This document shows positions 12,126 to 43,313 of a stretch of DNA of 64,000 nt, piece after piece. The stretch covers positions 1,888,001-1,952,000 of the forward strand of contig CAWIIB010000001.1 of the NCBI GenBank assembly GCA_963836075.1. The letters are read 5' to 3'. The position numbers were made by a program, and so were the translations under genes. Under the pieces are notes generated by a model. It was not told the origin of the DNA, ran no database searches, and was given only the letters and a program-made list of their open reading frames with translations. Source of the DNA: an uncultured Acidobacteriota bacterium. GTDB taxonomy: Bacteria > Acidobacteriota > JAQAZP01. The stretch's first letter is position 1; each line of letters starts with the position of its first letter.

Positions 12126-12191
12126 TCCTATTAGACTGATAATCACTGTGGTATATGTAGGATTCAACTGATACCCATTTGATGTGAACTG

Positions 12192-19205: not shown

Positions 19206-19289
19206 CCTTCTCAAACGATCCCGGCCGGATCGGGTTCACCCCTCACTCAGTGCAGGGGAGTGTCCCGGTCCGGCACCGGATGCTGCGCC

Positions 19290-19941: not shown

Positions 19942-20105
19942 GGACTATACCACCACCATGGGAAAAAGTATAGAAAAATAAAATATTTATATCGTTGTCA
20001 GGTACCGACGCCGCCCCGGGGAAGCCCGGTGTTTCATCTATCCATGCATTGTCCATGAAAACGTCCCCGGCGATGCCGCCGACGGTCACACAAGCAGCCA
20101 TGGCA

Positions 20106-23199: not shown

Positions 23200-23467
23200 C
23201 ACCAGCTTCAGATCCACCCCATCATTCTCAGACCGGTTCCCACTCGTCCCAGCCGGCAACCCATCCTGCTGATGATGTATTCGATTTAACTCGAACAGGT
23301 TTCCACTGATTGCCGAGCCCAGAGCCGAGATTGTCATGTTTCAGGCGGCAATATAACGGCTCCCGGGGGCCACGGTGGCGGTACTGTTCAGCAGCTTCCA
23401 TTGGCTATATGTGTCTGATACTCGATGGACGGGGAAGCTCGCAGCATATATGCCATGCCTTGTGTAC

Positions 23468-23506
23468 AAAAGAAAACGGGATGAAGCCCAAAGAACCTCA
23501 TCCCGT
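23468..23506 (-). terminator. Intrinsic terminator of RRM gene 2
   Basis: ACGGGATGA/TCATCCCGT stem + TTTTCTTTT; homologous to 19170-19205. Confidence 0.75.
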
Positions 23507-23589
23507 CTTTATCGAAAGACCCCGGTCGGATCGGGTCTCCACCTGAACTTTACAGAGGCACCACCGGCACGGCACCGGGATGCAGCACT

Positions 23590-23850
23590 CTAGTACCGGG
23601 AACCCCGCTCTTCACGGGGCTTCGCCTCGTTGACTTTCAGGTTGCGGCCGCCGAGTTCCTTGCCGTCGAGGGCGCGGATGGCTTCGTCGCCACCCGAGGA
23701 CATCTCGATAAAACCGAATCCCCGCGCACGACCGGTGTCACGGTCGGTGATCAGCTTGACTTCGTCCACGGTGCCGTGCTGTTCGAACAGCTCGCGGATA
23801 TCGCTCTCGGTGGAATCAAAGGACAGGTTTCCAACATAGATATTCGTCAT
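23590..23850 (-). CDS. Single-RRM RNA-binding protein, copy 2
   Basis: MTNIYVGNLSF..RGFGFIEM; near-identical to 19290-19550. Confidence 0.95.
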   Translation of the reverse strand: MTNIYVGNLSFDSTESDIRELFEQHGTVDEVKLITDRDTGRARGFGFIEMSSGGDEAIRALDGKELGGRNLKVNEAKPREERGSRY

Positions 23851-24236
23851 GGTCTTTCTTCTCGTTTCCTTTTCAAGATCAGACCCAGGGAAGGCCCCTG
23901 GTTGATCGTCCCCGGGGCTCAGCAAATTCAGCTGAATGCTCGGAGGGCCCCTTTCGGGGTTGGTGTTCTCTTGACTTGGGCACCAGTCGTCACCGCTGAC
24001 CACTGATGCTCAGATGACTCTTGCGTTGTCGCGCTCCTCTTTGCGCATTCAAACCTTGCTGCCCGATGGACTCATTTTGAGCATCCACAACGGTTAAACC
24101 GGACCGGCAGTCTGAATGGGCGCCGACCCGACCACTGTTGCGGCTGCGAGCTTTCGATCCACATCCACGCAATAAAAAGGGGACGATCTCAAGACCGTCC
24201 CTCTCACTTGCGTGCGACATGTCCGAAAACTCAAGC
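23851..24236 (-). ncRNA. Candidate structured 5' leader RNA of RRM gene 2 with internal terminator (24171-24205)
   Basis: Paralog of 19551-19941; extended -10 TGaTATAGT at 24239-24247. Confidence 0.6.
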
Positions 24237-24588
24237 TGACTATATCACCAACGAAGCGAAAAGCATAGTAAAATTAATATTTTACACCGAACCCGTCACC
24301 GTGCAGGTGGCCCTGTGAGACTGATGATGGGGCCAATGTAACCACTAACCAGCAAATATCCTTGGTCGCAGGTGGGATCAGGTGGATCAGCCGATTCCTC
24401 ATGCTGATGGCATCTTTCCTCCTGTTGGCCAAGACATTGCGGAGGATGAACCCCCGGAGAAGCCACGCGGCATGGCAATTAACCACTATTTCTTGCTTTG
24501 GCAACACCCCAGCCCTATATTTTACGTTGATAGATAAACCAATGGCGGTCATGGGCTGACGAGCGAATGAGGAGATAAGGAGACAACA

Positions 24589-26955
24589 ATGAGAATCGAC
24601 AACCGTTTCAAGGGGGGCATGGCTCTCAGGTGGGCGATGACCCTGGCCTTTCTCCTGATCCCACCCTCACCGGCATCGACGATAGCATTTGCCGGCGCCG
24701 GTCTCGACCAGGATACCGGATCCATCATTCTGCTCAAGTATGGCGCATTCAATCCCCTGGTTGGCGAACCGGAGGTGCCGGCCGAGCTCACCTCCGAGAC
24801 CGTTAGTAGCATCAGGCTGGTCCAGGTATCCGGCCCGCTCACCTCACCGGAAATTCTTTCCCTGGAGGACGCCGGGGCCACTCTGCTCAGCTACGTACCG
24901 GAAAATACATACCTGGCCCACGTCCCGCCTCAGGCACTCCCGCGTCTCCGGGCCCTGCCCGTGGTCCTGTGGGTGGGTCACTATCATCCCGCCTATAAAA
25001 TTCAAGCCGGGTTGCTCGAGCGGGAGGAGGCGCAGATCGAGATCAACATACTGCTCTTCCCTCAGCTGGCCGAAGAGAATGATCGGATAGCGCTGGGTGC
25101 CGAGATTGCATCTCTGGGGGGGCAACTCACCTTCCAGGAGGAGCTGTCCCACGTTCTTCGTGCCACCGTTCCACCGGCTGCGGTGATTTCACTGGCCAAA
25201 CTCCCCCAGGTTCATTGGATCGACCGCTACGATCCACCGCGAAAGGACATGGACGCTGTCCGCGAGATGATCGGGGCCACCTCGGTGTTTACTTTCGGCT
25301 TTGACGGCACCGGTATCACCGGCGCGGTAAAGGACGCGGGAATCGATCCGACTCATCCCGACTTCGGGAATCTCATCGGCACCCAGGGAAATCCAGGGGT
25401 GGACGAGCATGGTACCTGCACCTTTGGCATCGTTTTTGCCGACGGGACCGATAGCGTCCAGGCCATGGGAATGATGCCCGGAGGAGACGGGGTTTTCTGC
25501 AACTGGGACTGGGGCCGGAACTGGTCGATTCACGACCTGTTCCATTCCTATGGGGGGGTCTTTCAGTCCAACAGCTGGAGTCAGGGCCTGCATAACGGGG
25601 ACTACACCAGTTACTCCGACTCGAACGACGGCGCCATCAACAGCTATGATGTGTCCATGCTCTACTCTGCTGGAAACAGCCCGGTCAGTGTGGGGGCCGT
25701 CACCATTTCCCAGGATTCAGCAGCCAAAAACGTAATCTGTGTCGGCGGTGTATTTCACAAGGGCGACACCAACCAGGACAACGATGAGTGGCACAACTAT
25801 TTTGGGGCCGGGACCACACCCAGCCAGGGCCCGGCGGCCGACGGCCGGATCAAACCCGATCTCTGCGGCTATGTGGACTTAATCTACACCACTGATATTG
25901 TCGGCGCCGGCGGCTATACCTCCGGGAACTATGTCAGCGACTTTGGCGGAACCAGCGGGGCCTGTCCCATCGTGGCCGGTGCGGCGGGTCTGACCTATGA
26001 CATGTATATCGACAACCATTTCGGCAACAACACCGCCGGCGACACGCCACTGCCGGCCACAATCAAGGCACTGCTGATTGCCAACGCTTATCAGTACAGC
26101 CTCAGCGGTTCCTACTCCGCAACCCGCTACCAGCAGGGCTGGGGGGCACCTGACCTTGACCGGACCCACCAGGCAGGTTCCAATCAGGTCATTGTGGATG
26201 GCGGCACCGCCCTGAGTACCGGGGAAAGCTGGAGTACGGTCGTCACTCGTTACAGCGGCGCGGAGCCGTTGAAGATCTCTCTGGTCTGGAGTGATAAGGC
26301 CGGTGAAGCCTCGGCCTCGAAGGCGTTGATCAACGATCTGGATCTCATCGTGACCGCACCGGGCGGCTCTACCTTCCACGGCAACTATGGGCTTACCTAC
26401 AACCGGTATTCCACGGCCAGCGGTTCAGCCGACCGTCTGAACAACGTGGAAAATGTCTTCATCCAGTCCCCGGCCGAAGGCGACTACACCATTGAAGTTT
26501 TCGCCTACGACGTGGCCCTGGACAATCACCCCGACGCCGGGGTGAACCAGGATTTCTCACTGGTGGCCTCCATGGCCCTGGAAGGGGGGGCGAGCGATAC
26601 CATGCACGCAGTGATGGCTTGTGTCCCCACCTCGGGCACACTGCCCGCCACCGTCCAGATTCAGCCGCAACTGTGCAACGATGATTGGTTCACCCGCAAA
26701 CTTGCCGGTCATATCGATCTGACGATCGCCAACGGAGCAACTTACACCAACTGGCGCGCCGGCAATACCAACGTGGATCCCGGTGAATGTTATTACGGTC
26801 CGTTCAACATCAACCTGCCAAACCTCGGCACACTCAAAGGGGACAATATCTTTGTTCTGGTGGGTGAGGATGTAACGCCCCCGCCCTACAACCAACCCCC
26901 ATATTCCCCCGCCGGTGATTCGGACAGCGATGCCGGCACCTTCACCGGTTATTGA
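24589..26955 (+). CDS. Secreted S8 (subtilisin-like) serine peptidase with shared C-terminal domain
   Basis: Triad VKDAG / EHGT / GGTSGACP, SAGN oxyanion Asn, GRIKPDL, NNVE P-domain-like region; EDVTPPPYNQPPY CTD. Confidence 0.92.
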   Translation: MRIDNRFKGGMALRWAMTLAFLLIPPSPASTIAFAGAGLDQDTGSIILLKYGAFNPLVGEPEVPAELTSETVSSIRLVQVSGPLTSPEILSLEDAGATLLSYVPENTYLAHVPPQALPRLRALPVVLWVGHYHPAYKIQAGLLEREEAQIEINILLFPQLAEENDRIALGAEIASLGGQLTFQEELSHVLRATVPPAAVISLAKLPQVHWIDRYDPPRKDMDAVREMIGATSVFTFGFDGTGITGAVKDAGIDPTHPDFGNLIGTQGNPGVDEHGTCTFGIVFADGTDSVQAMGMMPGGDGVFCNWDWGRNWSIHDLFHSYGGVFQSNSWSQGLHNGDYTSYSDSNDGAINSYDVSMLYSAGNSPVSVGAVTISQDSAAKNVICVGGVFHKGDTNQDNDEWHNYFGAGTTPSQGPAADGRIKPDLCGYVDLIYTTDIVGAGGYTSGNYVSDFGGTSGACPIVAGAAGLTYDMYIDNHFGNNTAGDTPLPATIKALLIANAYQYSLSGSYSATRYQQGWGAPDLDRTHQAGSNQVIVDGGTALSTGESWSTVVTRYSGAEPLKISLVWSDKAGEASASKALINDLDLIVTAPGGSTFHGNYGLTYNRYSTASGSADRLNNVENVFIQSPAEGDYTIEVFAYDVALDNHPDAGVNQDFSLVASMALEGGASDTMHAVMACVPTSGTLPATVQIQPQLCNDDWFTRKLAGHIDLTIANGATYTNWRAGNTNVDPGECYYGPFNINLPNLGTLKGDNIFVLVGEDVTPPPYNQPPYSPAGDSDSDAGTFTGY

Positions 26956-26962
26956 TCCCAAC

Positions 26963-27003
26963 CATCATTCCAACGCCCCCCGCCGGGGGGCGTTGGAATG
27001 ATG
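26963..27003. terminator. 19-bp perfect hairpin between convergent genes
   Basis: CATCATTCCAACGCCCCCC-gcc-GGGGGGCGTTGGAATGATG, 7 nt after the S8 stop; no U-tract. Confidence 0.55.
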
Positions 27004-27251
27004 AGGATAGAGAGAAAGGGGGAAACGCAGTTCAGTCAAGCAGCCTGGAACTCGACCTGCTGCGGCCGCCGGAAAATGCAACCGAGCTATCGATGTGGCG
27101 GCCGGAGGTCCCAACCTGCTACTGATGTATTTAACCTTTTGAATACAAAGGACGGTGGTGCGGTGAGCAGGATCAACCGTCGGACGTAGTCATGGCTGGC
27201 CGTACGGAGCAACACCGGCCCGGTTAGTCCCGAGCCGGTGCCCGCTAGATA

Positions 27252-27287
27252 TCAGGGTTCGATCCCCGTCACCGTACAGGAGGCCGC
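27252..27287 (-). pseudogene. Relic 3' tail of a CTD-bearing gene (AASCTVTGIEP*)
   Basis: cccgtcaccgtacaggag matches the CTVTG-IAP ends of neighbouring genes. Confidence 0.6.
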
Positions 27288-27319
27288 CGTTAAGCGGACT
27301 CCATCAGTCCCTGACCGGG

Positions 27320-28723
27320 TCAGGGAGCAACGCCCACCACCACGTTGGCGCTGGTGCAGGTCGTTCCCGAAGCCGGATAGGGCGGCTGGTTGTAAGGAGC
27401 AGGCGTCACGTCCTCGGCGGTCAGTACAAAGGTGTTGCTGCCGATCACCGTGCCCGTTGCCGGGAGGTTGGCCGGAAACTGGATGGTGAAATTGCTCTGC
27501 GGCTGGATATCGGTGAAATTGGCACGCCACGGGTCGTAGACGTTGCCGTTGGCCAGGGTCACCGCAATCCGTCCGGCCACGCAGCGGAACCAGTCCGGTC
27601 CGCCGCTGTTCAGGTTGGACAAGGTGATCCGGTGGGTCATGGAGAAGGGCACCGTGCCCGACAGCGGAGTCACCGTGTAGTCGCAGTCAATGGGACCGGT
27701 GGCGAGGCAACTGATGTCCACCCCCAGTTCGAAGGTGCCGACACCGCCGTCAGTGCGACTGTCGACAATGATGTAGTAAGTCTGGGTGGAGGTCTGGCTG
27801 TAGCAGAAAACCTCGTCCTCACCACCGGCCAACCAGCCGCTGGCGCCGGCCACGCAGGTGCCGTTGACATCAGCGCAGTCAGTGACCATGTAGACACCGC
27901 CGTTCCAGGTCATCACGCTCTGGTTGAGCGTGACGCAGACTTCGCAGTGGCCCGGCAATGTGATGATGTAGGTCACGTCCTTGCCGGCATGGTCCAAACC
28001 GCCGACGCAGGCCGCGGTACAGTCGTAGTCGTTGGTGGCCAGGGTGATGTCACCGGTGTAGCTGCTGCTGCCGGGGGTGCCCGGGATCACGATGGCTCCG
28101 GCGCAGGTATCGTTGGCCGGCGGCGGCGTATCGGTGACCACCAGGTAGGGCACGTTGGCGCCGGTGTGGCCGTCGATCTCCAGGTAGTAGGTGGTGGTCG
28201 TGTCACGGCTGGCAGCACCGATGGTGAACCAGTCCTGGGCCAGGGCAGCGGTGAGATCGGCGTTGGCCGTGCCGCCCAGCGCCAGCGTCTTCCAGCCAAC
28301 ATCGTAGGTGGAAGACTCGTTCAGGTAATTGTAATAACCAGCAATTATCTCAGCCTGGGCATCGTCCCAGAGCAGGGCGGCGGTGGAATCGATGGGCACC
28401 GGGTCGAGGTCCACCGGCGTCACACTCCAGTAGGGCCAGTTGGTGTTGTTGACGTAGAAGTTGAATACCAACCCGGTAACTGTTGTGCCATCGGGTATCG
28501 AGCTGATGTCAAACTTGAAGAACGCGGTTTCCATCCGGGTGGTGCCGGTGGAAGCGCCGCCGTAGACCAGGGCCTCACCGTCGGTCTTGACGTCGTAGGT
28601 GGTGGTGCCGGTGGTGAAATCCTCCGTGGTGGGGTAGACCGTCCAGGTTGCGGCCATGGCGCCGATATCCAGAACGGGCAGGCAAAGGAATAGGATGGCC
28701 AGACTCGTCAATGTTTTGAGCAT
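27320..28723 (-). CDS. Secreted protein: DNRLRE-like domain + PPC-like domain + shared CTD
   Basis: Signal peptide MLKTLTSLAIL; FKFDISSIP; PANDTCAGA; EDVTPAPYNQPPYP. Confidence 0.85.
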   Translation of the reverse strand: MLKTLTSLAILFLCLPVLDIGAMAATWTVYPTTEDFTTGTTTYDVKTDGEALVYGGASTGTTRMETAFFKFDISSIPDGTTVTGLVFNFYVNNTNWPYWSVTPVDLDPVPIDSTAALLWDDAQAEIIAGYYNYLNESSTYDVGWKTLALGGTANADLTAALAQDWFTIGAASRDTTTTYYLEIDGHTGANVPYLVVTDTPPPANDTCAGAIVIPGTPGSSSYTGDITLATNDYDCTAACVGGLDHAGKDVTYIITLPGHCEVCVTLNQSVMTWNGGVYMVTDCADVNGTCVAGASGWLAGGEDEVFCYSQTSTQTYYIIVDSRTDGGVGTFELGVDISCLATGPIDCDYTVTPLSGTVPFSMTHRITLSNLNSGGPDWFRCVAGRIAVTLANGNVYDPWRANFTDIQPQSNFTIQFPANLPATGTVIGSNTFVLTAEDVTPAPYNQPPYPASGTTCTSANVVVGVAP

Positions 28724-28802
28724 GGTAGCTGCCTCTTTTGATTGAATATACAGAGAGATTCGACGCTGAGATCAAAGTGATCCCACCACTTTTTTCACAA
28801 TG

Positions 28803-28831
28803 AATATAGTTTCTTTCGAGACAAAGGACAA
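28803..28831 (-). promoter_or_regulatory. sigma70-type promoter TTGTCC-17-TATATT
   Basis: Exact 17-bp spacing; homologous promoters precede the other array genes. Confidence 0.7.
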
Positions 28832-28888
28832 GTGGGTTTTCGAGAGTAAGCATCCGGTGGCCCAACATTGCTGATGATGTAGTCAATT

Positions 28889-28901
28889 TAAGTTGTTGAT
28901 A
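28889..28901 (-). promoter_or_regulatory. IHF-like site (TATCAACAACTTA)
   Basis: Matches WATCAANNNNTTR; equivalent at 39396-39408 and near matches at ~27131, ~31002, ~41257. Confidence 0.55.
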
Positions 28902-28986
28902 ACAATAGATCGGCTATTTTGCTGGGATCGTTTTCTGGATGCGCTACGAGGCCTGCCCGATCAATGTCGCTGTTTCACCCGATCGT

Positions 28987-30564
28987 TCACGGAGCGATCC
29001 CCGTCACCGTGCAGGAGTCGGTATCAGTGTCGCCCGACGGCGGGTACGGGGGTTGGTTGAAGGGCGCAGGGGTCACGTCCTCGGCCACCAGCGTGAACTC
29101 GTTTCTCCCAATCACCGACCCGAGGGCCGGGATGTTCCGGGGCCAGGACGTGGTAAAGCTGTCTCCGGGCGGAACGCTCAAGAATCCGGTTCGCCAGTTC
29201 GGGAGAGACTGGCCGCCGGCGAGCTCGACATCGATACGGCCGGCAAGAGTCCGGGACTGGCTTGGGTGCCGGTTCGAGACCGTCACCGACAGATCCGTCG
29301 TGAAGGGCACCGTGCCGAACGTCAGGGAACTGGTCAGAACCGACTCCACCATCCGGCCGGGGTAGTGGTATCCCATGTCCACCTGCCCGGCGTCGTCGAC
29401 GAAGTCGGTGCGGGTCGGGCGCTGGTCGAGGCAGACAGTCCCCTCGCCACTGTCGAAGCAGATGTCCGCTGACGGTTCGCTCCCGGCATCCAGACACGGG
29501 CTGTCCTCGGCCTGCCCCGCGGCTACCTGGCTGAAGTAGTAGTTGCCCTCGGGTCCGGCAAAGAATAGCGGATCGGCGTCGATGTTTCCCTCGCCCGGCC
29601 AGCCGCCCTGAACGTCGGAGTAGGAGACGATCGAGGAGCCCGATGCGTCATGGATGCTGTCCGGGCTGTTGTTCCAGACGATGCAGTTGGTGATTGTAGT
29701 TGAGCCCCAGCAGGCGATCCCACCACCGTCACCAGCTACGTTTCCACTGAAGGTGCAGTTGGTGATCGTCGTTGAGTCCCCGCAGCTGATCCCACCACCG
29801 TCATTAGCTACGTTTCCACTGAAGGTGCAGTTGGTGATCGTCGTCGATTGCCAGCAGGCGATCCCACCACCCCTAGAATATCCATACAAACCCCCATGTG
29901 CCACGTTAGCGCTGAAGGTGCAGTTGGTGATCGTCGGCGAGGAGGCGTCAATGCAGCAGACCCCACCACCGTCACCAGATAGTTCATACCCATAATACCA
30001 ATCAAGTGCGTGGTTAGCGCTGAAGGTGCAGTTGGTGATCGTCGGGGAGGAGTGGACGCAGAAGATCCCACCACCATAATGAGCTACGTTTCCACTGAAG
30101 GTGCAGTTGGTGATCGTTGGCGAGGAGAAGGCGCAAAAGATCCCACCACCATACTCTTCAGCGGTGTTATCACTAAAGGTGCAGTTGGTGATCGTCGGGG
30201 AGGAGCCGTCGCATAAGATCCCACCACCACCCCAAGCTTCTCCGTTGCGGATCGTGAATCCGTCCAGCACCGAATCCTGCTCCTCACCGTTTGTGAAATG
30301 GAAGCCTCTGCCTTGCTCCTCACAATCTATGATGCAATTCTCCGACCCGCTCTCCGCCCTGACTGTTATCGCCTTGCCGCGGAAGCCAATGTCGCGGTTG
30401 CCTGAACCAGTGTATGTACCATCGGAAACCAGCACTATGTCACCGTCTACAGCGGCATCGATCCCCGCCTGGATGGTGGGCTGGTCGCCGGGGACGTAGA
30501 TCATGGCTGCTGCGGCCACTAGGGGAAAGCAGAGTATCAGGAAAATGGGTATTGTGCGTTTCAT
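28987..30564 (-). CDS. Secreted right-handed beta-helix (pectin lyase-like/Pmp-like) protein + shared CTD
   Basis: VPGDQPTIQAGIDAA start; SPTITNCTFSxN..GGGI repeats; GNIDADPLF; CTD. Confidence 0.88.
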   Translation of the reverse strand: MKRTIPIFLILCFPLVAAAAMIYVPGDQPTIQAGIDAAVDGDIVLVSDGTYTGSGNRDIGFRGKAITVRAESGSENCIIDCEEQGRGFHFTNGEEQDSVLDGFTIRNGEAWGGGGILCDGSSPTITNCTFSDNTAEEYGGGIFCAFSSPTITNCTFSGNVAHYGGGIFCVHSSPTITNCTFSANHALDWYYGYELSGDGGGVCCIDASSPTITNCTFSANVAHGGLYGYSRGGGIACWQSTTITNCTFSGNVANDGGGISCGDSTTITNCTFSGNVAGDGGGIACWGSTTITNCIVWNNSPDSIHDASGSSIVSYSDVQGGWPGEGNIDADPLFFAGPEGNYYFSQVAAGQAEDSPCLDAGSEPSADICFDSGEGTVCLDQRPTRTDFVDDAGQVDMGYHYPGRMVESVLTSSLTFGTVPFTTDLSVTVSNRHPSQSRTLAGRIDVELAGGQSLPNWRTGFLSVPPGDSFTTSWPRNIPALGSVIGRNEFTLVAEDVTPAPFNQPPYPPSGDTDTDSCTVTGIAP

Positions 30565-30701
30565 GCTTCACCTCCATTAGCAGTGCGCAATGAGGGATAA
30601 AGAACTCGGGCACCCTGAGACGACGACGGCTATCGCACGCTGTGTGGGACGCTTGGCACCTTCATACTGTCGAACGGGTTCAGTTGAGTGAAGATAAGGT
30701 C

Positions 30702-30730
30702 AATATATTGAGCAGTAAGCGTAAATTCAA
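30702..30730 (-). promoter_or_regulatory. sigma70-type promoter TTGAAT-17-TATATT
   Basis: Exact spacing upstream of 30564 start. Confidence 0.65.
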
Positions 30731-30832
30731 GGCATTAAGGGAAGATGGTATTCCGAAACGAACATAGCATTCAGGAGCCGAACAGAAAAGATAAATATTC
30801 CGATGGGATTGTCCATTTGATGATTAAGGAAA

Positions 30833-30940
30833 TCAGTGCTTCGCCAAATACTCCTTTATCGCCTCCTCGAGCAGCGAGCCGGCGGTCTTGTCCATCTTCA
30901 GCGCCAGTATCTTCATCTCCCGCCATAGCTCGGAGTCCAT
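30833..30940 (-). pseudogene. Ribbon-helix-helix (CopG/Arc-like) protein fragment, 35 aa
   Basis: MDSELWREMKILALKMDKTAGSLLEEAIKEYLAKH*; in-frame TAG just upstream removes the ribbon strand; below ORF-track cutoff. Confidence 0.55.
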
Positions 30941-31099
30941 ATGACGTCGTTTCTAAGAGACCATTGCTGGCGGCCTCACCAGGCTAACGTTGTATACAAT
31001 TTAAGTTGTTGAAAACAAAAGATTGACGTTTTACGCCCAGTCGACTATTGGCTATTGTGCCTCGACGAATTGATCAATGTCGCCGTTTCACCCGACTGT

Positions 31100-32614: not shown

Positions 32615-32670
32615 CTCGATACTCCTCGATATCCAACGATTATCACGATTGCCAGGTGTTTTCGGGCTTT

Positions 32671-34668: not shown

Positions 34669-34747
34669 GGGAACGACCTCATTTCTTTGAATACACAGAG
34701 AGATTGGACGACGGGTTCAGGGGTGACCCAAACACACAACTACCATG

Positions 34748-34776
34748 AATATAATTTACTTCAAGAAAAAGGGCAA
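34748..34776 (-). promoter_or_regulatory. sigma70-type promoter TTGCCC-17-TATATT
   Basis: Exact spacing; homologous to other array promoters. Confidence 0.7.
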
Positions 34777-34853
34777 ACGCGCCATCTCGAGCATGCAGCC
34801 GGCGCCCCCATCCTGCTGAAGATTTGTCCGCCCGGGCGTGACGACAGCAACGG

Positions 34854-36488
34854 TCACGGCGCGATCCCCGTAACCGTGCAGTCAGACGAGTCGGTGTCCC
34901 CCGATGGTGGATAGGGCGGTTGGTTGTAAGGCGGTGGCGTCACGTCCTCCGCTATGAGAGTGAAGGTATTGGTGCCGATCACAGTTGGATGGGCCGGAAT
35001 CGTCTGGATGATACTGGTGGTGAACGATGCTCCCGAAGCGAGGTTTAACCAGCCGGTTTTCCAGTTGGGAATGGACGTGCCGCCGGCGGTCAGGACATCT
35101 ATCTTGGCTCCCACCTTGCGGGTGAATCCGTAGTAGGTGTTGGTCAGCCGCAGGCCGATTTGGGCGATAAAGGGAACCGTGCCCGAGGCAGGCAGGCAGA
35201 GCAACTGGGCTGATACAGACTTCCAGGGGTAGTGATACCCCATGTCCGCCACACCGATGTCTTGAACATGGTCGGTGCGGGTGGTGCCGTCGATGGGTTC
35301 GTATTCCGGGGCGCCGGAGTCGACACAGGGGCTGTCCTCGGCTTGGCCGGCCGCGATCTGGCTCAGGTAGTTTTCGCCCCAAGGGCCGACCGCGAACAGT
35401 GGATCGGCGTCGATCATTCCCTCACCCCAGTGAAGATTGGCACCCTCATCCACGAATACCGCCGCCTCTCCTCCCTGGACGTCGGAGAAGGAAATATGGA
35501 CGATGGGGTGGCTGGACCGAACAGAGATCTCCGGGCCCGTGGAGGCTTCGTCGCCCCAGAGAATGGTGTTCGAACAGTAGAGGAGGTATTCCCCGTAGCA
35601 GTAAAGCCCTCCGCCCTCTCCGGCTGTATTGCCGGTGATGGTTGAGCTGTACACGGTACCGCTGCATGCTCCCACGGAAGATGATATGAGCGCCAAACCA
35701 CCGCCGGTGCCGGCATTGTTACCACTGACCAGGCAGTTCGAGATGTAGCAGTAATCCCCGTCCGCGTGGACACCTCCTCCTCTGTACTCTGCGACGTTGT
35801 CGCTTATTACGCACTTACTGATGGAGAAGGATCCCCATCGGGACCAGATCCCCCCGCCGTAGTTGGCCGAATTGGCGGTGATCGTGGTCTCTGTAATGGT
35901 ACCAAGGAATTGATAGAGCCGGATTCCGTGATCGTCGTTGCCGCTGACCAGACAACCGGTGATCTCGTCGTCGCCCCCATCGCACCGGATTCCGGTACCC
36001 GAGTTGTCCTGGATGACTGAATCTCGAAGGAGGAAAGAACTCCCGGACCCAAGGACACCGATTCCGGTGTTCTCACGAACCATTACTTGATCGATGAGCG
36101 GGGCCGAGCCTTCGCAGCAGATGGCCCCACCGGACTGGTCGCTCCACCCGTTCCTGATGGTGAACCCGCAAACAACGGCTCCCCGTGACTCACCGGTCCG
36201 AAAGTTGAATCCGAAGTGGGGCTCGCCTGAACTCCCTTGGCAGTCAATGACGCAGACGTCGGGGCCATTCTCGGAACGGAGGGTGATGCTCTTACCATGG
36301 TAGTCGATATCCCGGTTGCCGTCGCCGATGTAGGTCCCGTCCGCCACCAGCACGGTGTCACCGTCCACAGCGGCGTCGATGCCGGCCTGAATGGTGGGCT
36401 GGTCGCCGGGGACGTGGATGGTCTCAGCCGCGACCGCCAAGGGGAGAAAGAGGAATAGGACGGTCATTGCCGCGATATGCCTTAGCAT
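34854..36488 (-). CDS. Secreted right-handed beta-helix protein + shared CTD
   Basis: Start at MLRHIAAM signal peptide; VPGDQPTIQAGIDAA; CTD. Confidence 0.86.
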   Translation of the reverse strand: MLRHIAAMTVLFLFLPLAVAAETIHVPGDQPTIQAGIDAAVDGDTVLVADGTYIGDGNRDIDYHGKSITLRSENGPDVCVIDCQGSSGEPHFGFNFRTGESRGAVVCGFTIRNGWSDQSGGAICCEGSAPLIDQVMVRENTGIGVLGSGSSFLLRDSVIQDNSGTGIRCDGGDDEITGCLVSGNDDHGIRLYQFLGTITETTITANSANYGGGIWSRWGSFSISKCVISDNVAEYRGGGVHADGDYCYISNCLVSGNNAGTGGGLALISSSVGACSGTVYSSTITGNTAGEGGGLYCYGEYLLYCSNTILWGDEASTGPEISVRSSHPIVHISFSDVQGGEAAVFVDEGANLHWGEGMIDADPLFAVGPWGENYLSQIAAGQAEDSPCVDSGAPEYEPIDGTTRTDHVQDIGVADMGYHYPWKSVSAQLLCLPASGTVPFIAQIGLRLTNTYYGFTRKVGAKIDVLTAGGTSIPNWKTGWLNLASGASFTTSIIQTIPAHPTVIGTNTFTLIAEDVTPPPYNQPPYPPSGDTDSSDCTVTGIAP

Positions 36489-36563
36489 GACATTCACTTT
36501 ATTCGTTAATATCACGGACATAATGAGCTTTTGGGCGGTGTGCCCCAACACCCGTACGCATTG

Positions 36564-36592
36564 AATGTAATTTCCTTCTGCAAAACAAACAA
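36564..36592 (-). promoter_or_regulatory. sigma70-type promoter TTGTTT-17-TACATT
   Basis: Exact spacing at the homologous position. Confidence 0.6.
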
Positions 36593-36689
36593 GCGGAATT
36601 TCGAGGTAGTGGTGGCTGGCGGCCCCACCCTGCTGATGATGTGGCCCCCGGCATCAAGGACCTCAGGCCTTGGAAATCCATTTGCCGGC

Positions 36690-39230
36690 TTACGGTGCAA
36701 TACCCTCCACCGTGCAGGAGTCGGTATCGGTGTCCCCGGATGGCGGATAGGGTGGCTGGTTGTAAGGCGCAGGCGTCACATCCTCGGTCACCAACTCGAA
36801 CAGGTTATCACCGATCACCGAGCCCAGAGCCGGGATGGTCATGTTCCATGCGGCAATATAACTGCTCCCGGGGGACACGCTGGTGTTCCCGGCGCGCCAA
36901 TTTGGGTAGTGGCCGCTTCCGGCAAGCGTGACGTTGATGCGGCCCGCGATCCTCCGGGTCTGGCCGGTGTATTGGTTGGCCAGTGTCACCGTCATGGAGG
37001 TGCTGAAGGGTACTGTCCCGGCCGGCGGGATGCAGGTCAGCTCAGCTGCAATGGTGCCCCGACTGTTTATCAATACCGAAACATTGTTGTCCCAGCGATT
37101 GCACACCGCCAGGTCCGCTTTTCCATCGCCGTCCAGATCGTCGATGGCCACCGATCCCGGCTCCCCGCAGACACCAAAATGGCCGGCTTCCCGGAAGGTG
37201 CCATCCCCGTTGCCGGTCAGCACCGATACGGAATTTGAGGAGATATTGGTTGCCGCGAGGTCCGGAATGCCGTCGCCGTCCAGGTCATCGACAGCAACTG
37301 ACATGGGCCGTCTTCCAACCAGGTAATTAACGACCTCATTGAACGTGCCGTCGCCGTTGCCCAACAGCACCGAGATATCATGGCTGCTGTAATTCGCCGT
37401 GACGATATCCGGATTCGCGTCACCGTCCAGATCGTCGATGGCCAGGATGCGCGGGCTTTCACCAACCCCGATGCCGACAGCGGCCTGGAAGGTGCCGTCC
37501 CCATTGGCAATGAAAATCGAGACATCGTCGCTGGCTTCGTTCGCCGTGGCCAGGTCCTGGTGACCATCCCGGTCAAGATCGGCGATGGCCACCGAATACG
37601 GGTTAACACCCGCCGCGTAGTTTACGGCGGCCTGGAATGTCCCGTCCCCGTTACCCGGATAAACCGAGACCATACTACCGTACGTAATGGTAACGGCCAG
37701 ATCCTGGTGCTGGTCATCGTTCAGATAGCCAACGGCCACTGAACTCGGGTTTATATCAACTTCGAAAGTGATCGGAGCCTGAACGGTGCCGTCGCCATTG
37801 CCCAGGAGCACCGAAACGTCATCGGTCCAGTTATTCGCCGTCACCAGGTCCGGATGTCCATCCTCGTCCAGGTCTCCCGAAACGATGGTATAGGGCCATT
37901 CGCCAACAACGTAGTTCACCGGGGGTTGATACGTCCCGTCGCCCACACCTAAAAGAATCGAAACATCATCACTATACTGGTTGGCCACTGCCAGATCAGG
38001 ATGACCGTTTCCGTCAAGATCGCACGTGCATACCGAACGTGGAGTATTGCCGGCATCGTAGTTTGTAGAGGCTTTGAACGTAGCATCGCCATTGTCCAGC
38101 AAGATGGAGATAAAACCGTAGGTGCTGTTCCCCACTGCGATGTCCGGACGGCCATTGCCATCGAGGTCGCCCACGGCCAGCCCTCTTGGCGTATTTCCCA
38201 CCCAGTACTTCCCACCGGGCTGCAGTGACCCATCCCCGACGCCGAAGAAAATGGAAATCGTGTCATCGTAATCGTGTGCCGCCACCACGTCTCTGGTGCC
38301 GTCGAGATCAAGGTCGCCAAAAGCCAGGGTTGAAATGGAATGTTCGGCAATGATATCGATGGCCGGCTGGAACGTCCCGTCGCCGTTCCCCGGAAAAATG
38401 GTGATGGTATATCCATGCACCACCACCAGGTCCAGATGCCCGTCGTCGTTCATCCACCTCAGATATACTCGTTCGGGATCCCACAGAAACGTGCTCCATG
38501 CCTGGACAAGACTTCCGTTCCCCAATCCCTGGAGGACGAGGACTGAATTGCTCCCCTCCAGCGCCACGGCCACGTCGAGGTTGTTGTCTCCGGTCAGCTC
38601 GCCGATGGCCAGAGACCAGGGGGTGTTGGGTAGACCGAGCTCATGATGAATGGCCGCCTGGAAGGTGCCGTCCCCGTTGCCCAGAAAGGTGCAGACACAA
38701 CAGTGCGTGCTGTTCGCCGTGACCAAGTCGGGGTGACCGTCGTTGTTCAGGTCACCGATATCCACCCAGACGGTGTCGAAATGGGAGGCATACTGCACGC
38801 TGGGCAGGAAGGTGCCGTTCCCGACGCCCAGGAACACCGACACGTCGTCGGTGCCGCTGTTGGCCATGACCAGGTCGAGGTCACCGTCCCCGTCCAGGTC
38901 GTCCACGGCGATGTGGCGGGGGGAGGTGCCTCCGGTGTAGTAAGCCTCAGGCTGCAGCGTGCCGTTCCCGTTGCCCAGAAAAACCGCGGCAAAGCCCCAG
39001 CCATCCGCCCCGGCCACATCGTTGTGCCCGTCTCCGTCCAGGTCGGCGATGACCATCGAATGGCAGCGACAGTCCCGCCCGTAGTCGACCCTGACATCGA
39101 ACAGATGATTGCCCTCCGCCGGCGCAGCGAGAAAACAGAGGCTTGTCATTGTCAAACAGATCAAATGGCTTGCTCGGGTGGCCATGGCGGAACATCGATG
39201 ACCGTCAAACAACAGAGAATTCGTTGGCAT
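36690..39230 (-). CDS. Secreted VCBS/FG-GAP repeat protein (~13 repeats) + shared CTD
   Basis: DLDGDG..GNGDGTF repeats; CTD; start uncertain (39242/39230/39185). Confidence 0.87.
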   Translation of the reverse strand: MPTNSLLFDGHRCSAMATRASHLICLTMTSLCFLAAPAEGNHLFDVRVDYGRDCRCHSMVIADLDGDGHNDVAGADGWGFAAVFLGNGNGTLQPEAYYTGGTSPRHIAVDDLDGDGDLDLVMANSGTDDVSVFLGVGNGTFLPSVQYASHFDTVWVDIGDLNNDGHPDLVTANSTHCCVCTFLGNGDGTFQAAIHHELGLPNTPWSLAIGELTGDNNLDVAVALEGSNSVLVLQGLGNGSLVQAWSTFLWDPERVYLRWMNDDGHLDLVVVHGYTITIFPGNGDGTFQPAIDIIAEHSISTLAFGDLDLDGTRDVVAAHDYDDTISIFFGVGDGSLQPGGKYWVGNTPRGLAVGDLDGNGRPDIAVGNSTYGFISILLDNGDATFKASTNYDAGNTPRSVCTCDLDGNGHPDLAVANQYSDDVSILLGVGDGTYQPPVNYVVGEWPYTIVSGDLDEDGHPDLVTANNWTDDVSVLLGNGDGTVQAPITFEVDINPSSVAVGYLNDDQHQDLAVTITYGSMVSVYPGNGDGTFQAAVNYAAGVNPYSVAIADLDRDGHQDLATANEASDDVSIFIANGDGTFQAAVGIGVGESPRILAIDDLDGDANPDIVTANYSSHDISVLLGNGDGTFNEVVNYLVGRRPMSVAVDDLDGDGIPDLAATNISSNSVSVLTGNGDGTFREAGHFGVCGEPGSVAIDDLDGDGKADLAVCNRWDNNVSVLINSRGTIAAELTCIPPAGTVPFSTSMTVTLANQYTGQTRRIAGRINVTLAGSGHYPNWRAGNTSVSPGSSYIAAWNMTIPALGSVIGDNLFELVTEDVTPAPYNQPPYPPSGDTDTDSCTVEGIAP

Positions 39231-39308
39231 GGTAACCACCATTGATCGAATAATTTACATGAAGGACGGATGCTCCGGTCGGGATGCACCGAGCAGATGT
39301 ATGCCTTG

Positions 39309-39337
39309 AATATAGTTTCATTATGCAAAACGGGCAA
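39309..39337 (-). promoter_or_regulatory. sigma70-type promoter TTGCCC-17-TATATT
   Basis: Exact spacing. Confidence 0.7.
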
Positions 39338-39493
39338 GCGAGCCGCCTGTACACTTGTGGCCGGTGGTCACACCCTGCTAATGATTTAGTCAATTCAAGT
39401 TGTTGATAACAAAAGATCGACTGTTTTTCTGGGATCGACTTCTCGATACGCTGCTAGGCCTGATCAATCAATGTCGCTGTATCACCCGACCGT

Positions 39494-41092
39494 TCACGGC
39501 GCGATTCCCGTCACAGTGCAGGTGGACGTGTCGGTGTCACCCGACGGCGGGTAAGGCGACTGGTTATAGGGCGCAGGCGTTACGTCCTCGGCCACCAGAG
39601 TAAAGGTGTTCTCGCCCACGATCTGGGGCAGCATGGGAATGATGCTGTTGAAGGCGATAACGATGAAGTCATCCGGTCCGATAGTAACGGTGCCTGCTTT
39701 CCAGTTCGGGATCTGCAGGCCGCCGGCGAGGGCTACGTCGATCTGGGCGGCAAAGGTGCGTTCGGACTCGATGTAGTTGTTGGACAGCAGAACGCCGAAC
39801 TGCACCGGGAAGGGCAAGGTGCCCGACGCTGGGCGGCAGGCAAGTTTTGAGCTGACCGATTTCCAGGGGTAGTGGAACCCCATGTCCACCACAAATGCAT
39901 CGTGGACGTGGTCGGTGCGGGTGGTGCCCCAGATCATCTCGCTGTCCGGGTCGCCGCTGTCCAGGCAGGGGCTGTCCGCACCCTGCCCGGCGGCTATCTG
40001 GGAGAGGTAGTAATCGCCCAGGGGCCCGCCGGTCAACAGCGAATCGTCATCGATCATGCCCGGCCCCCAGTCAAGCTCGCACCCCGGCTCGAGCACCACA
40101 GTGTCCGGCCCGCCTTCCAGGTTGCTGTGATGGATCGACAGCGTCAGCGAGTAGCCAATGTAATGAATCATGTAGGCCTGTTCACCGGTCGTCGAACTGT
40201 TGTCCCGGATGATCGAGTTCACGATGAGCAGAGAGCCGTCGAAGCTGCATATGGCGCCGCCGTATTGTGGCGACTCGTTGCCAACGATGGTGTTGTTGAC
40301 CAGGGTGATCTCGCTGTCCACCACGAGAATGGCGCCGCCGCCGAACCCGCCGGTGGAGGTCACGGCGTTGCCCGTGATCAGGTTGTTGACCACCAACGGA
40401 TCACTGTAGTATCCGCTGCCGATAGCGCCGCCTCCTAACTCGGCCTGATTGTCGACGATCAGGTTGTGGCTGATGACGGGAGACCAGGAATCGGTACAGT
40501 GGATGGCCCCGTTGAAATCGGCCCAGTTTCCGCTGAACGTGTTGCGGGTGATCAGGGCATTGCTCTCGTAGATATAAATGGCGCCGCCCTGGTCCCCCCC
40601 GTCGTTCCCGGTGAACAGATTGCTTGTGATCAGGGGGTCCGCGCCGTAATCCTCGCAGGAGATGGCCCCGCCGCCGTTTTCGGCGACGCACCCGCTGAAG
40701 ACGTTGTCCCTGATGGTGGGGGATGCCGAGAGGCAGAGGATGGCCCCGCCGCGGTACCCATTGCCGTTGATGATGGTGAACCCCTGGAGCACCGATCCGT
40801 TGTCCTCGCCGGTCTGGAAGATGAAGGCCCGGTCCCCTTTCAGGCAATCGATCAGGCAGGAGGAAGCCCCCTCCGCCGAGGCCACGGTGATCGACTTGCC
40901 CAGGAAGTCGATGTTGCAGTTGCCGGGGCCCGTGTAAGTGCCGTCCGCCACCAGTACAGTGTCACCGTGCACCGCAGCATCGATGCCCGCCTGGATGGTG
41001 GGCTGGTCGCTCGGGACATGGATGACTGAGCCAATGGCCACAACTGGCAGACAAACGAATATGATGGCCAGACTCGTCACTGTTTTGAGCAT
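39494..41092 (-). CDS. Secreted right-handed beta-helix (GGAI repeat) protein + shared CTD
   Basis: Signal peptide MLKTVTSLAII; GGAI/FxxN repeats; CTD. Confidence 0.88.
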   Translation of the reverse strand: MLKTVTSLAIIFVCLPVVAIGSVIHVPSDQPTIQAGIDAAVHGDTVLVADGTYTGPGNCNIDFLGKSITVASAEGASSCLIDCLKGDRAFIFQTGEDNGSVLQGFTIINGNGYRGGAILCLSASPTIRDNVFSGCVAENGGGAISCEDYGADPLITSNLFTGNDGGDQGGAIYIYESNALITRNTFSGNWADFNGAIHCTDSWSPVISHNLIVDNQAELGGGAIGSGYYSDPLVVNNLITGNAVTSTGGFGGGAILVVDSEITLVNNTIVGNESPQYGGAICSFDGSLLIVNSIIRDNSSTTGEQAYMIHYIGYSLTLSIHHSNLEGGPDTVVLEPGCELDWGPGMIDDDSLLTGGPLGDYYLSQIAAGQGADSPCLDSGDPDSEMIWGTTRTDHVHDAFVVDMGFHYPWKSVSSKLACRPASGTLPFPVQFGVLLSNNYIESERTFAAQIDVALAGGLQIPNWKAGTVTIGPDDFIVIAFNSIIPMLPQIVGENTFTLVAEDVTPAPYNQSPYPPSGDTDTSTCTVTGIAP

Positions 41093-41170
41093 GGTAGCTG
41101 CCTCTTTTGGTTGAATATATAGTGAGATTGGATACCGGAATTAGAGTGAATCCAATACATTTATGAAATG

Positions 41171-41199
41171 AATATAATTTCTTTCAATAAAATGGGCAA
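41171..41199 (-). promoter_or_regulatory. sigma70-type promoter TTGCCC-17-TATATT
   Basis: Exact spacing. Confidence 0.7.
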
Positions 41200-41353
41200 G
41201 TGGGTCGTCGAGGACATGCAGCCGGTGACCATGACCTGCTAACGATGTATACAATTTAACCTGTTGAATACAAAGGACGGACGTTTATAACTAGTCGGCT
41301 TTTTGGCTACCGTGCCTCAACGAATTGATAAATTCGCCGAATTACATCGCTAC

Positions 41354-42952
41354 TCACGGCGCGAACCCCGTCACCGTGCAAGTGGCCGTAGCGGTATCGC
41401 CGGCCGGCGGATAGGGCGGCTGGTTGTAGGGCGCGGACGTCACGTCCTCGACCACCAGCGTGAATACGTTGCTGCCGATGGTGAATCCCAGCGCCGGAAT
41501 CGTTGTATTCCAGCGAGTCTGGATTCCGCTGCCCGCGGCCACGTTGAAGTATCCGGCCCGCCAGTCGGGAAAGGACCGACCGCTGGCGAGCGTAACATCG
41601 AGGCGGCCGGAAATAATACGCGACCAACCGTTGTAGTTGTTGAATATCCGGACATTCATGTTGGTCTGGAATGGCACAACGCCGGCTTGCGGTTCACACT
41701 GCAACTCAGCGAAGATGGTTCCGCATTCGATGGCCGAGACACCGAAAAAGTAAACCGACCCTGAATAGGAGCCGTTGTCGTCATCATCCCGTGCCCCGAC
41801 CATGACAATGTCGCCGGAGAGGGCGACGGAGTGGCCGAAGTGGTCATCAGCCTGCCCGTCGGAGGCGAGCAGCTGGGCCTCCTCGTTCCAGCCGCTGCCG
41901 TCGTACTTGAAGATTCGCACCGAACCGGCATCGTGAGCCCGGTCGTCGTCATACCGAATCCCGACGAGTGCAAGGTCGCCTGAGATGGATGTGGACATGC
42001 CGAACCAGTCTCCGGCCGCCGCTCCCGCAGCGGTCAATTTGGCTTCCTCGACCCAACCGCCGCCGTCATAGCGAAAGACATAGGCCGATCCCGAGTCGGG
42101 ACCGTTGTCGTCGTCCCATGTCGCTGCGATCAGGGCGATGTCGCTGGAGAGGGAGATTTGATTTCCGAATCCGTCTGCCGCCGCCCCGTCGGCGGCGGTC
42201 AGCTTGGCCTCCTCGACCCACCCGCTGCCGTCGTGGCGGAAGACATACACCGATCCCGAGTCGGTGCCGTTGTCGTCGTCATTCATCGCCCCGATCAGGG
42301 CCGTATCACCGGAGAGAGAGCCTCTACTGCCGAACGAGTCCCCTGCCGCCCCATCGGCGGCGGTCAGCTTGGCCTCCTCGACCCAGGTGTTGCCGTCGTA
42401 CTTGAAGATGTAGGCCGACCCCGAGTCGGTGCCGTTGTCATCGTCGCCCATCGCCCCGATCAGGGCTGTATCACCGAAGAGAGAGACATTAATACCGAAG
42501 AAGTCCCCCGCCGACCCGTCGGAGGCGGTCAGCTTGGCTTCCTCGACCCACCCACTGCCGTCGAAGCGGAAAATATAGGCCGACCCCGAGTCGGTACCGT
42601 TGTCATCGTCGCGCCCCGACCCCACCAGGGCAATGTTGCCAAAAAGGGCGTTGGGACCGCCAAAGTGATCATCCGCCGCCCCGTCGGAGGCGGTCAGCTT
42701 GGTTTCTTCGACCCATTCAATGCCATCGCGATGGTAGACATACACCGACCCCGAGTCGGTGCCGTTGTCGTCGTCGCGCCATGCCCCGACCAGGCCGAAT
42801 TCGCCGGAGATGGAGACGGAACTTCCGAACAAATCACTCACAGCCCCGTCGGAGGCGATCCGCTTGGCCAGTTCACAGGAAACCTGGTCGGCCGGAACCG
42901 CCACGGGCACCAACAGAAAAGCTGTAACAAGCAACACTCCAATCCTGTTCAT
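41354..42952 (-). CDS. Secreted FG-GAP (integrin-alpha-like) 7-repeat beta-propeller + shared CTD
   Basis: Seven EEAKLTAxDGAAGDxFG..ALIGA..DDDNGTDSGSAY repeats; CTD. Confidence 0.88.
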   Translation of the reverse strand: MNRIGVLLVTAFLLVPVAVPADQVSCELAKRIASDGAVSDLFGSSVSISGEFGLVGAWRDDDNGTDSGSVYVYHRDGIEWVEETKLTASDGAADDHFGGPNALFGNIALVGSGRDDDNGTDSGSAYIFRFDGSGWVEEAKLTASDGSAGDFFGINVSLFGDTALIGAMGDDDNGTDSGSAYIFKYDGNTWVEEAKLTAADGAAGDSFGSRGSLSGDTALIGAMNDDDNGTDSGSVYVFRHDGSGWVEEAKLTAADGAAADGFGNQISLSSDIALIAATWDDDNGPDSGSAYVFRYDGGGWVEEAKLTAAGAAAGDWFGMSTSISGDLALVGIRYDDDRAHDAGSVRIFKYDGSGWNEEAQLLASDGQADDHFGHSVALSGDIVMVGARDDDDNGSYSGSVYFFGVSAIECGTIFAELQCEPQAGVVPFQTNMNVRIFNNYNGWSRIISGRLDVTLASGRSFPDWRAGYFNVAAGSGIQTRWNTTIPALGFTIGSNVFTLVVEDVTSAPYNQPPYPPAGDTATATCTVTGFAP

Positions 42953-43128
42953 GACACGTCCCCCCCGCCCTCCGGGTTTTCCATCCATCCGCGGATGACC
43001 TGTGGGCGGTCGCCATCATTCATGGACCATGAGGGATTCCCCCCGGAATCTCGCCTGAGCCCCATCGCACCGCTTACAATTGTTGAAGTGAAAACCGACA
43101 AGGGAGAAATCCCAGATTCCCATGGATG

Positions 43129-43157
43129 AATCTAGAGCTTATCATTCGTAAAATCAA
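43129..43157 (-). promoter_or_regulatory. sigma70-type promoter TTGATT-17-TAGATT
   Basis: Exact spacing upstream of 42952. Confidence 0.5.
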
Positions 43158-43313
43158 TGACTATTTCACTCGCCATCATATCCGATCAGGAACTGTCGAT
43201 CTGGAGCACTGTGGCCGAGGGGGTTCGGGTTGCGACCGGCGTCCCCACCCTGCTGATGATGTGATCTCCCGATCACCAGTTGGGTCGGATCGATTGGCTG
43301 GACAGCCTCACGC

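Follow-up and report, generated by a model that had tools for sequence, protein, structure and literature searches.

The stretch of DNA analysed here (64,000 nucleotides (nt) of the genome of an uncultured Acidobacteriota bacterium, positions 1,888,001 to 1,952,000 of contig CAWIIB010000001.1, hereafter the window) carries on its minus strand an array of eight paralogous genes for secreted proteins (27320..42988, some of the starts being uncertain), and a 29-bp motif recurs at the junctions between them. The element is real: a stretch of DNA that neither codes nor folds, is under selection and is confined to the genus, marking the junctions of a hypervariable array of paralogues. The most plausible account of it, which is offered tentatively, is that of a protein-bound element upstream of a promoter, doubling as a homology patch for unequal crossover.

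The motif was noticed in an earlier reading of the letters alone (the sequence-only reading), and its nine copies in the window were found again at all nine positions, on the plus strand and in a single orientation. The consensus proposed in that reading followed the plus strand; the array genes lie on the minus strand and the motif is best read there, as TACATCATYAGCAGGnTGGGGCCRCCGG. The 29-mer consensus was also too strict, three of the nine copies matching it with three mismatches or fewer, and a 16-nt core of the motif gives 14 sites against 2.0 expected by shuffling (the nine copies included, all on the plus strand). When a profile of the nine copies was run with nhmmer over the whole genome (6.2 Mb), the same nine were recovered together with three more on contig C9 (519,6xx-523,2xx), the next-ranked match after these twelve having an E-value of 0.043; a sequence-only covariance model built from the motif alignment recovers the same 12 copies. 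The 12 copies are confined to two loci of the genome, the array of the window and a second locus on C9, and the genome-wide search that had been proposed for the motif shows no other clusters. The earlier view that the motif is no simple operator holds in this respect, as it is a discrete junction element and is not scattered over the genome like an ordinary operator.

Strong matches to the motif occur in three of 121 genomes of the phylum, all three belonging to the genus. In one sister species (G001) copies are located on contigs C61 (11157, 16511 and a weak one at 9321), C332 and C256, and in the other (G002) a single copy lies at a contig end. A scan of metagenomes returned 18 loci, of which six (L191, L198 and L201-L204) show the complete element arranged in the same way, while two are doubtful and ten are AT-rich chance matches; the L198 element is identical to the G002 copy over the stretch printed. 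A degenerate motif pattern proved too loose, with at least 120 single, chance-type matches across genome contigs of unrelated taxa. As judged by comparison of these sequences, the motif is kept under selection: it is retained in flanks that can no longer be aligned, in two other species and in six metagenome contigs. The array has a GC content of 0.54-0.60 against 0.64-0.72 in its flanks, in agreement with the difference suspected earlier. The assembly (GCA_963836075.1) consists of 10 contigs and is 94.7% complete and 4.6% contaminated; repeat arrays can be misassembled, but public contigs at 99-100% identity cover parts of this array, and one of them crosses the motif at 39360 without any difference.

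The motif forms the core of a larger element of ~57 bp that includes an AT-rich box resembling a site for integration host factor (IHF). This box (Box A, TTTGTTWTCAACArsTTAAATTGA), which contains the IHF-like match, often precedes the motif on the gene strand. When 12 copies, drawn from three species and several metagenomes, are aligned, conservation is 0.9-1.0 over the ~57-bp element and falls sharply to 0.36-0.64 just 3' of CCGG; in the metagenome and other-species copies only this element, in some cases with the spacer that precedes it, stands out. Across 23 copies, peaks of information content follow one another at intervals of about 10 bp through four helical turns, which fits with contacts on one face of the helix. 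Exact WATCAANNNNTTR is present five times in the window against 0.42 expected, and two of these occurrences, at 28889 and 39396, abut the motif; in the other copies the site is one base off exact (read by eye from the alignments). The IHF-like site reported beside the motif is therefore present.

Five junctions are homologous throughout (41221, 39360, 36615, 34798 and 28853). On the gene strand they run from the stop codon through a ~105-nt spacer, Box A and the motif to 21-22 unconserved nt, TTGCCC, 17 nt, TATATT, a ~75-nt 5' untranslated region (UTR), GAGG and ATG, the TATATT being located within a conserved block, GAArnAAAyTAyATTCA; in two of the five the spacer is cut to 27 and 46 nt. The pattern TTG-N20-TA[CGT]ATT has nine matches against 0.19 expected, and seven of these lie on the minus strand inside the array (28803-28831, 30702-30730, 34748-34776, 36564-36592, 39309-39337, 41171-41199 and 43129-43157), corresponding to the seven TTGxxx-17-TA(T/C/G)ATT promoters of the sequence-only reading. 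Box A and the promoter block are never found in the genome without the motif. The shared 5' UTR (28740-28800, 34690-34745 and 41100-41165) holds a short stem-loop whose arms differ among copies, and a second TGTATATTCAA box, found ~25 nt ahead of the ATG, may represent either another promoter or an element of the leader. The opposite strand of the -10 block reads TATAAT, TATAGT or TGTAAT (28803-28815, 34748-34760, 41171-41183 and others), so that one can conceive of an antisense transcript that crosses the motif and enters the upstream gene from its 3' end.

Read in the direction of the genes, the first copy of the array (43235..43263; this and all following copies are on the minus strand) is found 50 nt past the stop of a cupin gene and 77 nt upstream of TTGATT-17-TAGATT; it has no homology to other copies in either flank and, by our own count, fits the earlier consensus at 27 of 29 positions. 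The next copy (41221..41249, with Box A at 41250-41274) is separated by 104 nt from the stop of the preceding gene (41354-42988) and by 21 nt from the TTGCCC-17-TATATT that follows it, and the one at 39360..39388 (Box A at 39389-39413, with an exact IHF-like match at 39396-39408) lies 105 nt past a stop and 22 nt upstream of its promoter. Two copies without Box A follow; the stop and the promoter are 46 nt before and 22 nt after the one at 36615..36643 (TTGTTT-17-TACATT), and 27 nt before and 21 nt after the one at 34798..34826 (TTGCCC-17-TATATT). The copy at 30966..30994 has Box A, is 105 nt past a stop and has a unique downstream flank, the next promoter-like site (30702-30730) being 235 nt away, and that at 28853..28881 (Box A with an exact IHF-like match at 28889-28901) is again 105 nt past a stop and 21 nt upstream of TTGTCC-17-TATATT. 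The terminal copy (27101..27129) has a partial Box A; after it come a remnant of the promoter module (TCGATAGCTCGGTTGCAT) and, further on, the terminator of a convergent subtilase gene. An outlying copy with a 1-nt deletion (23252..23280) follows a decayed relic of the C-terminal domain of the array proteins (~23287-23418) downstream of a gene with an RNA recognition motif (RRM), and no sense-strand gene comes after it; one contig of metagenome run X4 has a C after 23259, inside this copy, an insertion that may restore the usual length of the motif.

The distance from the motif to the -35 box does vary from ~22 to ~235 nt, as first described: five window copies have 21-22 nt, 43235 has 77 nt and 30966 has 235 nt. 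The gap of 21-22 nt is found at six of the 12 genome copies (these five and the first copy of the second array) and also at G001:C61:9321, where an unrelated Na/Ca-exchanger gene ends 14 nt before the motif and Box A is missing; the motif thus keeps to the promoter even without the upstream module. A TTGCCx-16/17-TATxTT site is found 33-235 nt downstream of three more non-terminal copies (by eye); sigma-70 spacings outside the window and the box counts over 23 copies were likewise read by eye from the printed sequence. The sequence-only reading had pointed to a conserved gene order, or to a fixed distance from promoters, as evidence against gene cassettes: gene order is not conserved, but a fixed gap of 21-22 nt does exist at the six copies and at one copy of a sister species.

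According to the account favored here, the motif would be a genus-specific and sequence-specific protein-binding element forming the upstream border of the promoter module in a small sub-family of genes for secreted proteins, located in the common layout at about -58 to -86 from the predicted start with the IHF-like box near -100; the motif would there serve to recruit a regulator common to the array genes, or to position it. Activator-dependent sigma-70 promoters of class I-type layout combine an upstream site with an IHF site, and a sub-optimal -35 box (such as TTGCCC) is usual for promoters of this kind. The junctions resemble these promoters in having an asymmetric block 21-22 nt before TTGCCC and an IHF-like box one to two helical turns further upstream, and differ from them in that some copies have no downstream promoter, the gap is not fixed throughout and the 3' ends of genes are also marked. 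A CheY-like response regulator gene (43769-44152) and a PAS histidine kinase gene (44318-45772), both on the minus strand, stand beside the array, and such a pair is present at the second array as well (L001:1991-4056, L001 being the sequence of the second locus). The pairs are mutual best paralogues in the genome, with 34.5% identity between the kinases (22% for the next-ranked match) and identities of 50% and 40% for the CheY-like regulators (32% for the next). Paralogues so paired beside both arrays suggest, from protein comparison, a linked control system.

Several observations weigh against a promoter-bound element. No DNA-binding regulator specifically linked to the arrays was found, and the adjacent response regulators are receiver-only; a gene for a bacterial enhancer-binding protein (bEBP) occurs near all three arrays, yet the genome has 43 bEBP matches and the best paralogue of the window bEBP is not the bEBP at the second array, which makes this link weak. 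The gap to the -35 box is 33, 77 and 235 nt in three copies and ~165 nt in a sister-species copy (G002:C4), three copies have no promoter, and the same promoter type is present without a motif at 19075-19105. The fixed gap of 21-22 nt may only reflect the common descent of the junctions. The motif shows neither the dyad nor the clear direct-repeat symmetry that is usual for regulator sites, and it travels with the 3' end of a gene in a unit that has moved between species. Finally, the copies at 27101, 23252 and C9:523,2xx and that of metagenome contig L202 have no same-strand gene downstream and are equally well kept.

The genes of the array (27320-28723, 28987-30564, 31100-32746, 32671-34668, 34854-36551, 36690-39242, 39494-41092 and 41354-42988, all on the minus strand) each encode a signal peptide, a variable passenger (beta-helix/PMP, FG-GAP or without a Pfam match) and a common C-terminal domain of ~130 aa that ends in EDVTPAPYNQPPYPPSGDTDTxxCTVTGIAP immediately before the stop codon (e.g., window 27323-27730 and 28990-29400). 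They had been taken for self-contained cassettes; the eight are, however, paralogues with this domain, signal peptides and promoters in common, not unrelated units, and tandem duplication thus accounts for much of what is seen. Genes 32671-34668 and 31100-32746 are ~80 nt apart (32590-32671) if the second starts at MRAHS...; theirs is the sole array junction without a motif, it has no promoter-like site either, and the two genes are therefore probably co-transcribed. A hidden Markov model of the C-terminal domain finds 204 open reading frames (ORFs) in the genome, the domain ending within five residues of the stop in 182 of them, and with only twelve copies of the motif against 204 domain ORFs the motif belongs to a small sub-family of domain genes.

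The content of the array turns over rapidly. The window array has eight genes and eight motifs, with a motif at both ends (43235 and 27101) and one internal junction without it; the second locus has two genes flanked by three motifs, and in G001 (C61) a motif stands before the first and after the third of three array genes. Among the 12 copies, five have homologous flanks on both sides and seven on one side or neither, the homology being upstream only at 30966, 27101, C9:521,4xx and C9:523,2xx, downstream only at C9:519,6xx and absent on both sides at 43235 and 23252. The upstream flanks of 28853 and C9:521,4xx score 128/130, with identity decaying inside the motif. Two alignments between the loci (L001:9843-11427 with window 30501-28854 at 85% identity, and L001:11769-13244 with window 32441-30963 at 67%) stop at the far edge of the motif, and the gene order of the second locus is swapped relative to the window. 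The first gene of the second locus resembles junctions 34798 and 41221 in its promoter, 5' UTR and signal peptide, and its promoter module is unlike the upstream region of its own closest relative. Between species, G001:C61 matches window 51241-43316 at 87-88% and the RRM region (24230-23470) at 81%; between these syntenic flanks G001 has the Na/Ca-exchanger gene and three array genes, which match paralogues elsewhere in the present genome at 73-76% and none of the eight window genes (ten best-scoring alignments). In G002 (C4) and in metagenome contig L204, array genes or the terminal motif are likewise placed beside the RRM region. An orthologue (89%) of window 43160-41356, i.e., the promoter and first gene, is found at another locus of G001 (C332), where it is followed by Box A, the motif and genes that in the present genome are located at C9:790 kb. 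Contig L202 is 93% identical to window 27085-25166 and has a different type of spacer upstream of its motif.

Within the favored account the motif, being the only non-coding stretch that is nearly identical among the paralogues, would also provide a patch of homology where tracts of unequal crossover and gene conversion begin or stop; the n+1 layout, the mosaic flanks and the rapid turnover of the array would follow from such a role. Loci with comparable features are known in other bacteria: the vsp, vsa and vpma systems of Mycoplasma have an adjacent recombinase and inverted sites that switch one promoter, and in the Neisseria pilin system a Sma/Cla repeat lies 3' of the copies, silent copies being used. 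As in those loci, a short conserved non-coding element stands here beside each variable surface or secreted paralogue, at recombination boundaries; unlike them, all genes of the array are complete, have their own predicted promoter and point in the same direction.

A second possibility, which we consider unlikely, is that the motif is a dedicated recombination site at which a recombinase acting in trans (a member of an Xer-like pair, or one that went unrecognised) cuts and joins DNA, whereby self-promoted units composed of promoter, gene, spacer, Box A and motif would be gained, excised or shuffled, the IHF-like box having an architectural role. Much of the turnover just described speaks for it: the n+1-type layout with motifs at both ends in three arrays, the single orientation of all copies, the homology on one side or neither in seven of the 12, the two second-locus alignments that end at the far edge of the motif with the order swapped, the decay of identity inside the motif between 28853 and C9:521,4xx, the difference in array content between species inside flanks that are 87-88% identical, and the 89% orthologue of the first unit that carries Box A and the motif at another G001 locus. 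However, duplication and homologous exchange can give the same pattern, the units being paralogous and the C-terminal domain present in 204 copies. Several breakpoints also fall outside the motif, namely at a relic of a domain end (27252-27286), at the promoter relic ~30 nt past 27101 and at a switch 63 nt into a coding region, and the unit that moved in G001 has its 5' edge at its -35 box with no motif upstream. In four metagenome DNA runs, whose short Logan contigs give little power on excision, the joints listed fall in FG-GAP repeats or in the C-terminal domain and none at the motif.

It had been noted that no recombinase is in view, and none was found among the ORFs scanned in the window or at the second locus; genome-wide there are four matches to tyrosine recombinases (Phage_integrase), the nearest 49 kb from the second array, and no match to a serine recombinase, contrary to the suggestion that motif arrays might cluster near an enzyme of either type. 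Known core sites of tyrosine and serine recombinases have inverted binding arms around a spacer, whereas no inverted arms or dyad symmetry were seen in the motif on reading the alignments. An attC-like hairpin of single-stranded DNA was rejected, 12 folds (six copies, both strands) being no better than shuffles (z from +0.71 to -0.95).

More doubtful still is the specific proposal that the motif and the IHF-like box form the core site of an integron-like cassette system with neither attC nor IntI and with its recombinase in trans. As in an integron (attI plus attC), the genes are set apart one by one by an element of constant orientation, n genes go with n+1 sites and the content varies inside conserved flanks; unlike in an integron, there is no adjacent IntI, no palindromic attC fold and no conserved GTTRRRY boundary (GTTAAAT in 8/23 copies, CTT.A.T in 7/23 and no box in 8/23, counted by eye with L193 and L195 excluded), every unit has its own predicted promoter, and the units are paralogous in signal peptide and C-terminal domain, integron cassettes being unrelated genes without promoters of their own that share a single one. 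The insertion-site idea of the sequence-only reading thus stands as far as a junction element at the array ends, one-sided homology and turnover are concerned, and is not supported in view of the paralogy of the units, the absence of a nearby recombinase, the lack of dyad symmetry or of a fold and the breakpoints elsewhere.

It is improbable, though not without points in its favor, that the motif belongs functionally to the gene upstream as a 3'-end element which, with Box A, binds a protein (as DNA or as unstructured RNA) and stops or insulates transcription or marks the end of the mRNA, so that each gene would be kept apart from the promoter that follows it. The gap of 104-105 nt between stop codon and motif, reported for four cases, is indeed found at 28853, 30966, 39360 and 41221; six of the 12 genome copies lie at this distance past the stop of a C-terminal-domain gene, the spacer is conserved across species, and the same layout is present in G001 (C61 and C332) and in metagenome contigs L201 and L204. 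Furthermore, copy 23252 follows a decayed relic of the domain, a terminator scan gave nine terminator-like sites against 11.8 expected in shuffles with few convincing intrinsic terminators in the spacers, and the array-side RRM gene, of an RNA-binding type, is syntenic with the array in three species (G001 and G002 included) and on one metagenome contig (L204). Against this, the distance from the stop is not constant (27, 46, 105, ~190 and ~310 nt), the first copy of the second array has no same-strand upstream gene, the genes before 43235 and G001:C61:9321 are unrelated and stop 50 and 14 nt away, and the element is missing downstream of ~170 other genes with the terminal domain; a 9-mer count over 182 regions downstream of domain genes revealed no common element, only GC-rich terminator-like words. 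No conserved RNA structure was detected on either strand, and an RNA element, suggested at first for the 3' UTR, was rejected: RNAalifold found no pair in the motif and none in the motif with its spacer (gene strand), the opposite strand yielded 13 trivial pairs (-1.6 kcal/mol), and Rfam has no match at any motif with E up to 1 (two spurious sub-threshold matches lie elsewhere). The repetitive extragenic palindromes (REP) and bacterial interspersed mosaic elements (BIME), such as RIP and RIB of E. coli, are palindromic, number hundreds of copies genome-wide and carry IHF sites; the motif is like them a short repeat with an IHF-like site in 3' intergenic space, and unlike them it is non-palindromic and has 12 copies at two loci.

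That the motif is a neutral residue of tandem duplication with no function of its own is very improbable, for although the genes are paralogous and five junctions are homologous across the whole intergenic region, the motif is retained where flanks cannot be aligned and kept in three species and several metagenome populations with conservation dropping right beside it, and copy 43235 keeps 27 of 29 consensus positions without detected homology around it.

Two further candidates were rejected. A small ORF or coding spacer is not supported, codon-phase conservation being 0.76, 0.75 and 0.77 with no frame open in all copies and frame shifts between copies visible in the sequence. When the 12 copies and up to 40 nt of their flanks were scored on both strands for a sigma-54 promoter (GG-N10-GC, TGGCAC/TTGC context), no copy reached 8/10 and three had 7/10, about as expected by chance; 53 perfect sigma-54 sites are found elsewhere in the genome.

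The C-terminal domain extends well beyond the array. In the window its carriers include the opposite-strand subtilase (24589-26955) and an M23 peptidase (53434-55701), and it gave no match in Pfam (six of the ten carrier genes of the window scanned) or in NCBIfam (four of the ten). Among 41 related genomes it is present in three, all of the genus, and it occurs in 238 metagenome proteins with many different N-terminal enzyme domains; all 120 of the metagenome domain proteins listed are named "hypothetical protein". A structural model (mean predicted local distance difference test, pLDDT, 89.7) shows an eight-strand beta-sandwich with only generic immunoglobulin-like or fibronectin type III-like structural matches, and the domain may be an undescribed export or anchoring tag. 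The type IX secretion system (T9SS) families SprA_N and Por_Secre_tail gave no match, but the controls were likewise unmatched. A literature search returned nothing relevant to the motif element or to the domain, from which no claim of absence from print is made. A relic of an older 3' end of the domain (27252..27286, minus strand, ending in CTVTGIEP before the stop) lies between the stop of 27320-28723 and motif 27101, and this fragment and that at ~23287-23418 are traces of older units that were overwritten or lost.

The cupin gene (43314-43676, minus strand) and the RRM gene (23590-24003, minus strand), described as unrelated genes beside the motif, are real neighbours of the array. The window has two paralogous RRM regions (19140-19985 and 23470-24230) with similar terminators, the proteins being 66% identical, and the array-side RRM protein matches the NCBIfam family Rbp_regulator just above its cut-off. 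Between the terminal motif and the RRM gene is the subtilase gene with the C-terminal domain (24589..26955, plus strand), absent at this place in both sister species. A long, perfect, GC-rich hairpin (26955-27008) separates this convergent gene from the array; its Rfam label, mir-8927 (26.7 bits against a cut-off of 160), was rejected, the structure being terminator-like and bidirectional and no miRNA. Two large genes for multihaem cytochromes (c7/c3/MtrC-like repeats) are located upstream (window 10137-14957), and a cytochrome/NrfD/Fer4 set stands beside the second array (L001:4053-9138).

The consequences depend on the account adopted. If the motif is a dedicated recombination site, it would represent a new way of assembling gene cassettes, and with a recombinase in trans the array would amount to a hypervariable locus of the exoproteome, working in the manner of an integron. 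If the favored account is true, the motif would be a lineage-specific control element for co-regulated secreted proteins of an uncultured sediment bacterium, a result useful for annotation and not surprising. The C-terminal domain, with 204 ORFs in this genome, hundreds of metagenome proteins and many enzyme domains attached to it, merits a study of its own. The locus itself is a clear natural case of an array of paralogues that turns over fast while one short non-coding element is kept at its junctions.

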